A stretch of 6,073 nucleotides of DNA from the IMG/VR virus record IMGVR_UViG_2706794698_000016; one strand, given 5' to 3'. Origin of the DNA: a virus (taxonomy: Duplodnaviria > Heunggongvirae > Uroviricota > Caudoviricetes). Shown piece by piece: positions 2,850-5,968 of the stretch; position 1 is the stretch's first letter, and every line of letters starts with the position of its first letter. Position numbers and translations under genes: made by a program. The notes beneath the pieces are model-generated. The model did no database searches. It had not been told where the DNA came from and saw nothing but the letters and a program-made list of their open reading frames with translations.

Positions 2850-3743
2850 ATGCTTCCTGTAAATAATCCCCCCCTATCCACTGGAAACGTCTCTTTTTAC
2901 AGAACTACATCAATCGACAATGTTCACAATAATTATCTCTCCGAATGGGTTGAATGGACTAAAAACAGCATTTCCGGAGAAAACAGGGAAACTGCTTTTA
3001 CCCGGCTCCAATTATGTCTGGAGAACAGTGAAACATCGTTGGACTTATCTTGTTTAGGTCTCAGATCTCTACCACGATTGCCTGACAATCTTGATGAAAT
3101 TAATGTAAGCAATAACCAACTATCAATGCTCCCCGAGCTACCAAGGGCATTGAAAGAGCTGAATGCAAGCAGTAATCAATTATCTGCACTTCCTGAATTA
3201 CCAGTGTCGCTGGAATATATAAATGTGAGTGATAACCATTTGTTCGCACTTCCTGAATTACCTGCGTCACTAGAATATATTAATGTAAGTGACAATCACC
3301 TGTCTGTACTTCCGAGGTTACCAATGTCATTGGAATTACTTGATGCAGCCAGAAATGCTTTGGAAGTAATACCAGATTTTCCAGAAAGAGATGATCATAT
3401 TATAAGAATATTCTGGCTTAATCAGAACCGGATCACGGCAATTCCGGAAAGCATACTTGGCCTCAGTTCTGATANNNNNNNNNNNNNNNNNNNNNNNNNN
3501 NNNNNNNNNNNNNNNNNNNNNNNNNNNNNNNNNNNNNNNNNNNNNNNNNNNNNNNNNNNNNNNNNNNNNNNNNNNNNNNNNNNNNNNNNNNNNNNNNNNN
3601 NNNNNNNNNNNNNNNNNNNNNNNNNNNNNNNNNNNNNNNNNNNNNNNNNNNNNNNNNNNNNNNNNNNNNNNNNNNNNNNNNNNNNNNNNNNNNNNNNNNN
3701 NNNNNNNNNNNNNNNNNNNNNNNNNAAACTGCCAGGAAAATAA
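2850..3743 (+). CDS. ipaH: IpaH-family type III effector, N-terminal LRR domain; 3' part masked (3475-3725); no room for a NEL E3-ligase domain
   Basis: ATG at 2850 with GAGG SD at 2841-2844. N-terminus MLPVNNPPLS...YLSEWVEWTKNSISGENRETAFTRLQLC... and repeated LPELPxSLxxLNVSxNxL units ending ...NRITAIPESILGLSSD match the IpaH/SspH LRR architecture. In this frame the first stop after the mask is TAA at 3741-3743, so the product is at most about 297 aa, against about 550 aa or more for intact IpaH. Confidence 0.8.
   Translation: MLPVNNPPLSTGNVSFYRTTSIDNVHNNYLSEWVEWTKNSISGENRETAFTRLQLCLENSETSLDLSCLGLRSLPRLPDNLDEINVSNNQLSMLPELPRALKELNASSNQLSALPELPVSLEYINVSDNHLFALPELPASLEYINVSDNHLSVLPRLPMSLELLDAARNALEVIPDFPERDDHIIRIFWLNQNRITAIPESILGLSSDXXXXXXXXXXXXXXXXXXXXXXXXXXXXXXXXXXXXXXXXXXXXXXXXXXXXXXXXXXXXXXXXXXXXXXXXXXXXXXXXXXXXKLPGK
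3181..3300 (+). repeat. tandem duplication of a 60-bp LRR unit inside ipaH
   Basis: 3181-3240 and 3241-3300 encode LSALPELPVSLEYINVSDNH and LFALPELPASLEYINVSDNH (18/20 aa identical). The DNA is about 78% identical, with most differences synonymous. Confidence 0.7.
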
Positions 3744-4510
3744 GCAATGTGGCTTTTGATGGTTCCTCCGATATCACATTAAAAGCAAGTCATGTTGGTG
3801 CGTTTGCCTTAGGGAAAACAGGAAGCACCGTTGCGAATGATAAAGCAGTTGGATGGAACTGGAGTAGCGGAGCCTATAACGCAACTATTAGTGGTGCATC
3901 AACGTTAATTATTCATTTTTATATGGGAGAAGGAAGTTGTCCTGCAGCTCAGTTTCGGATTAATTATAAAAATGGCGGTATTTTTTATCGTTCAGCCCGT
4001 GATGGTTATGGTTTTGAAGCCGACTGGTCCGAATTTTACACCACCAGAAAACCTTCAGCAGGAGATGTTGGTGCACTGCCGTTATCTGGTGGTCAACTGA
4101 ATGGTGCACTGGGTATCGGAACATCCAGTGCTCTTGGCGGTAATTCGATTGTATTGGGTGATAATGACACGGGCTTTAAACAAAAAGGCGATGGTAATCT
4201 GGATGTTTATGCTAATAACGTCCATGTTATGCGCTTTGTCTCCGGAAGCATTCAAAGTAATAAAACCATAAATATTACGGGACGTGTTAATCCCTCGGAT
4301 TACGGTAACTTTGATTCCCGCTATGTGAGAGATGTCAGACTTGGCACACGAGTTGTTTAGACCATGAAGAAAGGCGTGATGTATGAAAAATCAGGCCATG
4401 TAATCACGGGGCTTGGTATTATCGGTGAAGTCGATGGTGATGATCCGGCAGTATTCAGACCAATACAAAAGTTAATTAACGGAACATGGTATAACGTATC
4501 GCAGGTATAA
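3726..4510 (+). pseudogene. side tail fibre (Stf) variable C-terminal segment, copy 1; in-frame TAG at 4358-4360; 5' part masked or absent
   Basis: The frame is open from the mask edge (3726) with no stop before the track start at 3749 (GTG). Translation ...GDNDTGFKQKGDGNLDVYANNVHVMRF...YVRDVRLGTRVV is followed by TAG and then the same frame continues [49 protein letters not shown] to TAA at 4508-4510. The minus-strand paralogue has no stop at the equivalent position. The tfa ATG follows 2 bp later. Confidence 0.7.
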
Positions 4511-4512
4511 TC

Positions 4513-5046
4513 ATGCAGCATTTAAAAAACATTGTCGCAGGTAATCCAAAAACCGTTGAACAATACCAGCTAACAAAGAATTTTGATGTTATCTGGTTAT
4601 GGTCCGAAGATGGAAAAAATTGGCATGAGGAATTAAAAAACTTTCAGGAGGATACAATAAAACTGGCTTACACAGTTGAGGGAATAATTATTGCTATAGA
4701 CAAGGATGTATCAGCAATTAATCCAGAAGGTTTAAGTGTCGTTGAGTTGCCTGATATTACAGCAAATCGCCGGGCTGATATTTCGGGCAACTGGATGTTC
4801 AAAGATGGTGCGGTGATAAAGCGAACTTATACCGAGGAAGAGCAAAGGCAACAAGCGGAAAATGAAAAGCAGAGCCTGCTGCAGCTCGTCAGGGATAAAA
4901 CCCAGCTGTGGGACTCTCAGCTACAGCTGGGCATCATTTCCGATGAGAATAAACAAAAATTAACCGAGTGGATGCTCTATGCGCAGAAGGTTGAATCCAC
5001 AGACACCTCCAGCCTGCCAGTAACGTTTCCCGAACAACCAGAATGA
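4513..5046 (+). CDS. tail fibre assembly protein (Tfa), 177 aa
   Basis: ATG 2 bp after the stf stop (typical stf-tfa coupling). The N-terminal half is paralogous to the minus-strand tfa' (...[27 protein letters not shown]...). Ends FPEQPE*. Confidence 0.85.
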
Positions 5047-5049
5047 GAG

Positions 5050-5079
5050 AAGGCCCGCTATCGGGCCTTAATTTTTATT
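5050..5079 (+). terminator. rho-independent terminator between convergent tfa genes
   Basis: AAGGCCCG-CTAT-CGGGCCTT (8-bp perfect stem, 4-nt loop) followed by AATTTTTATT on the plus strand. The T-run is only on the plus side, so it mainly serves the plus-strand tfa. Confidence 0.55.
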
Positions 5080-5442
5080 CAGGCTTTTGTGGCCATTCAG
5101 GATTTGCCGTATCCACACGGCTGACCAGAACACTGTAGCGTTCCCATGCTTCCAGTCGTGTGCGTTCCTCGTCTGTTGCCATATTCAGCCTGACAGCTCG
5201 TTCCAGCGGCTGGATGACTGATTCAGCTTCGGAAAGCAATGCGGCCTTTTGTGATTCGGCCTGTTGTTGCAGTTCCTGTTCTGTATATTCCCTCTTTACT
5301 ACTTTACCATCCAGAAACATCCATTTTCCGTTATTGTCTGCGTGACGATTTGCCGTAATATCAGGAACTTCAACTATGCTTAGCCCTTCAGGATTAATAG
5401 TTGAAACGTCTTTACTGACAGCAACGATGATGTTGTTCTCAT
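5075..5442 (-). CDS. tail fibre assembly protein, second copy (tfa'); 5' end masked, probably starting near 5670
   Basis: The minus-strand frame is open from 5442 down to TAA at 5075-5077. Translation ...[69 protein letters not shown]...[14 protein letters not shown] parallels the plus-strand Tfa N-terminal half and carries the Tfa C-terminal motif. The track ORF from Met at 5320 is an internal start. Confidence 0.8.
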
Positions 5443-5702
5443 NNNNNNNNNNNNNNNNNNNNNNNNNNNNNNNNNNNNNNNNNNNNNNNNNNNNNNNNNN
5501 NNNNNNNNNNNNNNNNNNNNNNNNNNNNNNNNNNNNNNNNNNNNNNNNNNNNNNNNNNNNNNNNNNNNNNNNNNNNNNNNNNNNNNNNNNNNNNNNNNNN
5601 NNNNNNNNNNNNNNNNNNNNNNNNNNNNNNNNNNNNNNNNNNNNNNNNNNNNNNNNNNNNNNNNNNNNNNNNNNNNNNNNNNNNNNNNNNNNNNNNNNNN
5701 NN

Positions 5703-5967
5703 ATATTCCCCCAATCAATTTCTGAATTGGCCTTCTGGCAACAGTGTCGACAATATCATCCGCATTGCTGTTAATTGCGGCTGTTAAAACATAACCTGAC
5801 GCATCGCCAAAGCCGTAGTCGCGCCATACGTTTTTATATTCAATGCTGCCAAGACGAATATCCCGAACGACATGATTATGCAGCCATGTGCTTAACCAGT
5901 TGTTTTCCCACACTGAACCATAAATATCGCCACTAGACGCAACTTGCGCACCACTTCCCAGCGCAAA
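5703..5967 (-). pseudogene. side tail fibre variable segment, copy 2 (stf'), interrupted by IS insertion at 5968/5969; 3' end masked
   Basis: Minus-strand translation FALGSGAQVASSGDIYGSVWENNWLSTWLHNHVVRDIRLGSIEYKNVWRDYGFGDASGYVLTAAINSNADDIVDTVARRPIQKLIGGI is paralogous to the plus-strand copy (VRDVRLG, RPIQKLI). The frame continues upstream into IS sequence, so the track start (GTG at 5992-5994) lies inside the IS and is spurious. Confidence 0.65.
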
Positions 5968-5968
5968 T

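Follow-up and report, generated by a model that had tools for sequence, protein, structure and literature searches.

A tail-fibre locus in a lambdoid prophage remnant with the features of a decayed Din-family host-range switch

Results

Two opposed tip and chaperone cassettes

The sequence analysed here, referred to as the window, is a 6,073-nucleotide stretch of tailed-phage DNA, and its region 3726-5968 is very probably a decayed host-range switch of the Din family, one that inverted a tail-fibre segment as in Mu G and Shigella B. The plus strand of this region carries a variable fibre tip (Sv) followed by tfa, and the minus strand carries, facing them, a second chaperone gene and a second tip. 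The earlier note had described this arrangement as stf-tfa facing tfa'-stf', and it is borne out by Pfam domains (gp37_C, Caudo_TAP) and by 85% identity of the chaperones to Mu U' and U, which identify two alternative cassettes, each of a tip and a chaperone, that are oppositely oriented. Of these, cassette B, on the minus strand, holds the expression position, and cassette A, on the plus strand, is silent. Next to ompW and trp, the locus occupies the right end of what remains of a lambdoid prophage.

The silent tip Sv(A) extends from 3726 to 4360 (+), up to a premature TAG, and matches, at 100% identity, residues 666-875 of the fibre of Shigella sonnei ATCC 29930 (related locus L010; L numbers denote relatives of the window locus). 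It matches Pfam gp37_C (6e-8), and the tail-fibre C-terminal part of the cassette (3728-4507, +) shares 98.5% identity with residues 182-442 of the intact NCTC86 fibre. The in-frame stop previously claimed for the plus-strand copy is real: codon 4358-4360 is TAG in the window and CAG in NCTC86, and TAG is present in 6 of 6 Shigella-type relatives checked, whichever their orientation. Beyond it, the last 49 codons (4361-4510, +) keep the frame, the NCTC86 alignment crossing the stop up to residue 442. The adjacent chaperone gene, tfa(A) (4513-5046, +), is intact and of the Mu U' type (84.7% identity, 3e-101; Caudo_TAP 5e-34); in the assembly collection, 4765 blocks index exactly this protein. 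A hairpin terminator (5050-5069) separates it from the convergent tfa'(B) (5075-5442, -), a Mu U-type chaperone gene (85% identity; Caudo_TAP 1.5e-31) of which the C-terminal 121 codons are visible, its N-terminal part being masked by an N run (5443-5702). The visible part is 100% identical to a 175-aa protein of L004. The tip fragment in the expression position, Sv'(B), spans 5703-5968 (-), with 5704-5967 matching the 918-aa fibre of L004 at residues 824-911 (100% identity), and is cut short on its upstream side at IS600.

Crossover sites at the segment ends in relatives

A search of the unmasked window with the dix-type pattern WAAACCNNGGTTTW, allowing up to two mismatches, returned three weak matches versus 0.9 expected, a number reached by 17 of 200 shuffles, and none of them lies at the segment, in agreement with the claim that no crossover site is visible in unmasked sequence. 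On these counts, a dix-like string at 2339-2352, within a methyltransferase gene, was discarded as a chance match. Genome contigs were scanned for the stf'/IS600 junction and for a degenerate bix/gix pattern, and neither scan returned a match.

Relatives of the locus do carry sites. In L004 and L010, 26-bp inverted sites stand at the segment ends, and they are letter-for-letter the published bixL (TTCCTGTAAACC GA GGTATTCGATAA) and bixR (TTCCTGTAAACC GA GGTTTTAGATAA) of the Shigella B segment-pinB (PMC3241671, Table 3). Both bix-type sites are present in L004, L009, L010, L016-L018, L028, L030 and L033. The invertase-side site lies 124-149 bp to the left of the base matching window position 3726 (L003-L009), and the site next to the constant fibre part (Sc) is found some 600 bp past the point of IS insertion, which agrees with the suggestion that any surviving sites would be found in 3475-3725 or beyond the IS. 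From the positions in relatives, the N run 3475-3725 is expected to cover the invertase-side site, TTATCTAAAACC TC GGTTTACGAGAA, together with some 41 codons at the start of the silent tip; the surviving site would read TTATCTAAAACCTCGGTTTACGAGAA and stand approximately 124 bp left of 3726. Since N-run lengths differ from the homologous lengths in relatives, positions under the Ns do not map onto those in relatives. Given the ipaHe fragment that precedes this N run, the surviving site may also be gone, or the local order may be unlike that of the relatives.

That fragment, which the earlier note does not mention, comes from the 5' end of ipaHe, a T3SS effector gene, and is 686 bp long (2789-3474, +; 99.9% identity to annotated EIEC ipaHe), with its ATG at 2850 and the first 208 codons, and it lies with N runs at both ends between the invertase remnant and the segment. 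Complete-genome relatives have just 249 bp in its place. No ipaHe was found in this interval in L003-L010, the order invertase remnant, ipaHe piece, Sv was found in no relative retrieved through exact-protein look-ups (tfa, methyltransferase, 89-aa ORF), and the piece had no match in the plasmid collection. Its start lies 215 bp inside cassette-specific DNA and its end presumably about 95 bp short of the conserved IpaH C-terminal region; such boundaries are a poor fit to assembly gaps at repeat edges. Any linkage of ipaHe to the switch is putative.

A truncated invertase shared with relatives

The remnant of a Gin/PinB-type serine invertase was identified by blastx at approximately 2531-2729 (-), covering about residues 16-81 and interrupted by two in-frame stops. 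Its match at 2728-2534 (-) shows 69% identity to Gin over the full match (16-99) and 61% to PinE, and, with stops replaced in the query, it aligns to positions 19-86 of 145 of the Pfam Resolvase profile. Codons 1-15 would fall under the N run 2730-2788. The C-terminal catalytic part (past ~86 of 145 in the profile) and everything downstream in Gin are missing; after about residue 81 the translation continues in frame into a tfa 3' fragment (2398-2530, -), which is a direct repeat of 1348-1492 (89.7%). The fusion adjoins a methyltransferase cargo gene. No adjacent functional serine invertase, with catalytic domain and C-terminal HTH, was found in the window. The pin remnant proposed previously is thus a pseudogene, as stated; it is truncated, has stops and is closer to Gin/PinB than to the Pin of e14. 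Identical lesions occur in 17 of the 17 relatives that retain the invertase-side flank, in both orientations. The retained 5' part is nearly identical to that of Mu gin, and the recombinational enhancer was reportedly located in the 5' region of gin by Kahmann in 1985; a Fis-dependent enhancer may therefore survive in the remnant.

The IS600 junction

The right end of the window is occupied by the left end of an IS600 element (5969-6073, +; 99.4% identity to an element annotated as IS3-like, IS600 family). Homology to intact fibres stops at 5968, and the constant 5' fibre part is absent from the window, with IS600 in its place at 5969; relatives such as L004 and L010 keep it, within fibres of 918 and 875 aa, respectively. 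We considered whether the segment could still be switched in the genome of the window, by way of a simple IS insertion or a nearby Sc-side site and an invertase acting in trans. The window does hold only 105 bp of the IS, and loci whose invertase is dead evidently still invert in trans (see below), but this is an improbable reading of the junction: five relatives share it at 100% identity, and in them the IS leads into lysis and late-regulation genes, with no continuation of the fibre and no second crossover site within 9 kb. No target duplication surrounds IS600 in L003 or the other relatives with the identical junction, and in this lineage (L003, L005-L008) a single site remains in 20 kb, the invertase-side one. 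The lack of both a fibre continuation and a target duplication argues that the fibre gene was truncated at a deletion endpoint. The minus-strand stf' copy does end at IS600, as the earlier note had it, but it is not split by the element. IS600 marks a deletion in which the remainder of Sv'(B) was lost together with the constant fibre part and the second site.

Inversion between near-identical genomes

Comparison of relatives with both sites revealed the segment in both orientations, with the exchange located at the site core, in two pairs of near-identical genomes. Between L004 and L010, a 2914-bp interior is identical and the flanks are reverse-complemented; between L028 and L030, a 3745-bp flank is identical and a 3079-bp interior is exactly reverse-complemented. 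In both pairs the inner half-sites move with the segment, while the outer half-sites remain with the flanks. Where a locus has both sites and its two cassettes differ, cassette B is expressed in L004, L009, L016, L028 and L033, and cassette A in L010, L017, L018 and L030. These orientation differences are between genomes, not among reads of one culture. Scaffold L017 provides one hint of a mixed culture, which could be an assembly artefact.

We also asked whether these orientation differences could stem from RecA-dependent homologous recombination between inverted repeats. The NCTC86 allele, in which ~620 bp are near-identical in both tips (3726-4344 matches both), could support inversion in that genome. 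The corresponding repeat in L004 and L010, however, is just 30 nt long at 83% identity, identity is unbroken over at most 12 bp (ACCTCGGTTTAC), with the 2-bp core in the middle, the exchange falls within these 12 bp, and the sites equal functional bix sites. Identity of 12 bp is too short for efficient RecA recombination. With so short a shared core, homologous recombination was rejected as the flipping mechanism, and we regard it as very unlikely. It is scarcely credible that the cassettes are diverged convergent paralogues that were never inverted: the unmasked window shows no site and the local invertase is dead, but in the relatives each end of the segment has a bix site, and the segment occurs either way round, its half-sites reciprocally exchanged and its interior unchanged in sequence between orientations.

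Segment inversion, as the earlier note had read the locus, therefore withstands the test set for it, namely that an absence of sites and of orientation heterogeneity would argue against it. The same dead invertase is present in 17 loci, and yet these occur in both orientations with no sequence divergence, which suggests that flipping is driven in trans by an invertase whose existence we infer from this pattern, none having been located in the genomes concerned. Because loci with the dead invertase occur in both orientations, this lesion is not the main lock. The description of the switch as locked thus holds for the window lineage, but what mainly locks it is that the second site and the constant part are gone.

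Discussion

The system to which the locus belongs is already known, and the region is what is left of a textbook case of phage host-range switching. The closest likeness is to the Shigella B segment-pinB. Tominaga, Ikemizu and Enomoto are said to have described in 1991 a G-like B segment whose constant fibre part is long and not that of Mu, and the crossover sites of the B segment were reportedly published in the same year. The relatives of the window share with this system the bixL and bixR sites and a Shigella sonnei host, L010 being ATCC 29930. The B-pinB clone (GenBank D00660), compared here through published site sequences rather than by alignment, is functional in S. sonnei (PMC3241671). 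Its pinB is intact and active, whereas the window invertase is truncated after ~81 codons and has two stops. The published bix pair has the inner half-site TTCCTG on both sides, whereas in the window-type locus one inner half-site is TTCCTG and the other TTCTCG, and the window copy, unlike B-pinB, is without the Sc-side site and the constant part.

The same gene order, S-U/U'-S' followed by the invertase, is found in Mu G-gin and also in SfMu, Escherichia phages 520873 and 503458, and Yersinia phage vB_YpM_5; NCTC86 and E66 are organised like the window, as is Mu (S-U-U'-S'-gin). The resemblance to Mu extends from the chaperones and the 5' region of gin to the crossover sites, gix differing from window-type sites by one or two outer half-site differences, with one window-type inner half-site identical and the other differing at two positions. 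DNA identity to Mu-like phages is 84-88% over 41-58% of the segment. In contrast to Mu, the window element resides in a lambdoid prophage, the tip of its cassette B is not Mu S-like, and the window-type constant part is a long lambdoid Stf N-terminus (Pfam phage_tail_N; ~618 aa in L010) versus ~170 aa for Mu Sc. The e14 P-pin and P1 C-cin systems follow the same Din-family logic, with cassettes between 26-bp dix-type sites and an adjacent serine invertase. The core of their pix and cix sites is AA, whereas that of the sites in the relatives is GA, and long inverted repeats like those of P1 are confined to the NCTC86 allele. Similarity to the e14 chaperones is weak and limited to the stray tfa fragments. 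Membership in the e14 P-pin system was rejected, since the remnant is nearer to Gin, the sites are GA-core bix and the cassettes have no homology to those of e14 beyond generic tfa 3' ends.

In the intact device, the long constant part Sc runs into a ~2.9-kb segment holding two opposed tip and chaperone cassettes, A with a Mu U'-type chaperone and B with a Mu U-type one. A serine invertase cuts the 2-bp cores of two inverted 26-bp bix sites and inverts the segment, linking Sc to one tip or the other. How the lesions are distributed among the loci compared shows directly in what order decay proceeded. The invertase, truncated, carrying two stops and fused to the tfa fragment, died first and long ago, its lesions being common to E. 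coli and Shigella, and the segment would have continued to flip through an invertase encoded elsewhere. The nonsense codon of cassette A, common to Shigella-type loci, followed, and the IS600-associated deletion, confined to the window lineage, came last and took away Sc and the bix site beside it, along with part of cassette B. What is left, on this reading, is a frozen locus in which cassette B points towards the missing Sc and cassette A is silent and carries a nonsense codon, such that no fibre can be made and simple inversion is impossible.

We consider it unlikely that the ipaHe fragment beside the expected site records effector-cassette shuffling at a recombination hotspot. We also consider it unlikely, if somewhat less so than continued switching, that the lone bix site and the enhancer stump act as a substrate for a distant PinB/Gin-type invertase and recombine with bix/gix-like sites of other prophages; if this were true, large chromosomal inversions or deletions would be expected in Shigella sonnei-type genomes.

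As a relic of a known system, the window itself is of little importance beyond its correct annotation. Its relatives, on the other hand, provide clean natural evidence that orphan switches continue flipping after their own invertase has died, and this would imply an active trans-acting Din-family invertase in these Shigella and E. coli lineages.

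Results

The window carries two convergent tail-fibre cassettes, and the stf-tfa versus tfa'-stf' layout proposed in the earlier note is borne out by ORF listing and homology. On the plus strand, cassette A comprises the variable C-terminal part of a side tail fibre (3726-4510; Pfam gp37_C; 98.5% identity to residues 182-442 of the intact E. coli NCTC86 fibre) and an intact tail-fibre assembly chaperone (4513-5046; Caudo_TAP 5e-34; 84.7% identity to Mu U'), followed by a hairpin terminator (5050-5069). On the minus strand, cassette B comprises a second chaperone with its N-terminal part under Ns (5075-5442; 85% identity to Mu U) and the end of a second fibre tip (5703-5968), which is 100% identical to residues 824-911 of the 918-aa fibre of relative locus L004 and unrelated to the first tip. 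At 2531-2729 on the minus strand, a serine invertase is represented by its N-terminal third (69% to Gin, 61% to e14 Pin; Pfam Resolvase positions 19-86 of 145). This gene order corresponds to that of Mu, S-U/U'-S'-gin, and to that of the equivalent prophage region of E. coli NCTC86 and E66. Positions 1-103 are an IS1 end, matched by the IS1 genes called in L003 and by another copy in L004, and 104-253 are an ompW fragment, 91% identical to NCTC86; this places the start of the window where the prophage meets the chromosome, next to the trp operon. A cargo gene for a class I SAM-dependent methyltransferase (1724-2392) lies between direct repeats at 1348-1492 and 2398-2541 (89.7%), each of them the 3' end of a tail-fibre-assembly gene; this module terminates many E. 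coli lambdoid prophages whether or not the switch is present.

Near-identical loci were obtained by exact-protein look-ups. In L004 and L010 (S. sonnei ATCC 29930), 30-nt sites are the only inverted repeats flanking the cassettes. Four half-sites make up the sites of these and other relatives: an outer one on the constant-fibre side, TTATCGAATACC, an outer one on the invertase side, TTATCTAAAACC, and inner half-sites A, GGTTTACGAGAA, and B, GGTTTACAGGAA. In the published orientation, the site joining cassette B to the constant fibre part (Sc) is TTCCTGTAAACC GA GGTATTCGATAA and that joining it to the invertase side is TTCCTGTAAACC GA GGTTTTAGATAA; the two match at every letter bixL and bixR of the Shigella B segment-pinB (Table 3, PMC3241671). 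Compared with the relatives' sites, Mu gix shows one or two differences in the outer half-sites, and two relative to inner half-site A.

Where a locus has the two sites and its cassettes are unlike, the one joined to Sc is B in L004, L009, L016, L028 and L033, and A in L010, L017, L018 and L030. L004 and L010 share a 2914-bp interior with zero mismatches, their flanks being mutual reverse complements over more than 4.4 kb, while L028 and L030 have an identical 3745-bp flank and exactly reverse-complemented 3079-bp interiors. In both pairs the segment carries its inner half-sites along and leaves the outer ones in place, so that exchange falls within an identical stretch around the 2-bp core, 12 bp long as derived from the L004 and L010 sites. 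Such confinement is the signature of Din-family site-specific inversion; 12 bp of identity is insufficient for RecA recombination. The reading of the cassettes as mere diverged paralogues is rejected, because both orientations occur among relatives with reciprocal exchange at the sites, inside the 12-bp identical stretch, as site-specific inversion would leave it.

One draft scaffold, L017, holds the A-Sc and B-Sc junctions together (3679-4520 / 7270-8111; 6604-7271 / 8087-8754), with a duplicated constant part and a single-N join at 7269. A culture containing both orientations would be assembled in this way, but a scaffolding artefact or a genuine structure with three sites could give the same picture. 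In L025, a 4.8-kb N run (2013-6819) covers the invertible segment almost exactly, beginning some 80 bp inside the left site and ending at base five of the right one. Both inner half-sites are of type A in NCTC86 and of type B in E66, like the published bix pair, and the NCTC86 tips have about 620 bp in common (L001 6001-6620 versus 8690-8069), a repeat resembling the long inverted repeat of P1 C; these features suggest gene conversion between cassettes.

Each lesion described in the earlier note was located, one of them in altered form. The plus-strand stf has an in-frame TAG at 4358-4360, where NCTC86 has CAG, with 49 further in-frame codons beyond it; the expressed 875-aa fibre of ATCC 29930 is also truncated by the cassette A TAG. 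The pin remnant is indeed a pseudogene, with two in-frame stops and a fusion past about residue 81 to the final ~25 codons of a tfa gene. An IS does interrupt the minus-strand stf', yet not as the simple split envisaged. Position 5968 is the last base homologous to intact fibre, and the left end of IS600 follows (5969-6073; 99.4% identity to annotated IS600); in the five relatives L003 and L005-L008, whose junctions match that of the window at 100% identity, IS600 is followed by prophage DNA for lysis and late regulation, with neither fibre continuation nor 3-bp target duplication, so that IS600 marks a deletion endpoint. Past 12600, L007 and L003 differ in that the neighbouring prophage genes beyond IS600 are in reverse order and orientation, a pattern that inversion between two copies of IS600 would explain.

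As in the earlier note, no crossover site is visible in the unmasked window. The relatives have their invertase-side site 124-149 bp to the left of the base that corresponds to window 3726, and its place in the window would be expected within the N run 3475-3725; their Sc-side site is located some 600 bp past the IS600 insertion point. A dix-like string, AAAACCAAGGTTCA, at 2339-2352 within the methyltransferase gene is probably due to chance; the core of this string varies between the window (A at 2346) and relatives (G), changing Lys to Arg.

The 5' part of ipaHe, a T3SS effector gene, occupies 2789-3474 (99.9% to annotated ipaHe of enteroinvasive E. coli), with the N run 2730-2788 separating it from the dead invertase and the N run 3475-3725 separating it from the segment. 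The equivalent interval in L003-L010 is only 249 bp long and contains the start of the invertase, the site and the variable-tip start; in complete-genome relatives ipaH is absent from it. Intact ipaHe in enteroinvasive E. coli (L011) lies between a window-type methyltransferase and the tail-fibre module of another prophage, and drafts L016 and L017 place ipaHe on the opposite side of the invertase remnant, over single-N joins. Compared with relatives 100% identical elsewhere, N runs differ in length at 259-452 (194 versus 416 bp), 729-942 (214 versus 242 bp) and 5443-5702 (260 versus 184 bp). Window coordinates under Ns are untrustworthy, and because the draft placements differ, the N-run lengths mismatch and the Rha-family gene (start 457, stop 986) is out of frame between its two visible halves, both ipaHe adjacency and site survival under Ns are uncertain.

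Discussion

The same truncated, fused invertase is present in 17/17 loci that contain the invertase-side flank (both stops in 16), which span E. coli and Shigella-type genomes and both orientations. Since the inversions between genomes without interior divergence are far younger than this decay, we infer that flipping would have been carried out by an invertase acting in trans. The cis elements of the switch may be intact, because the retained 5' part of the invertase gene, where a Fis-dependent enhancer reportedly lies (Kahmann 1985; Johnson & Simon 1985), is nearly identical to Mu gin. PinB is a candidate trans-acting invertase, given that L010 is S. sonnei and that the B-pinB clone D00660 was reported functional in this species (PMC3241671).

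The window's own switch, previously described as apparently locked, is locked whether or not the ipaHe piece is adjacent or a site survives under Ns: the IS600 lineage retains the invertase-side site, with no second within its 20-kb loci, so the segment is frozen. Cassette B faces a missing Sc and a missing promoter, and cassette A is silent and bears the nonsense codon. From the distribution of each lesion among loci, invertase death (common to E. coli and Shigella-type loci) came first, the TAG (common to Shigella-type loci) second and the IS600 deletion (limited to the window's lineage) last.

Among known systems the switch most resembles the Shigella B segment-pinB, which has identical sites and a G-like design built onto a long constant part of lambdoid type. 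Mu G-gin and the Mu-like phages rank second, with DNA 84-88% identical across about half of the segment; e14 P-pin and P1 C-cin have the logic in common, though neither the sequences nor the GA core. The window copy lacks three defining features of the family: a working invertase, the constant part and, judging from its lineage, a pair of crossover sites. It is thus, as first read, a remnant, and one of an already known kind of switch. The only mildly notable point is clean natural evidence of trans-driven flipping where the switch's own invertase is dead.
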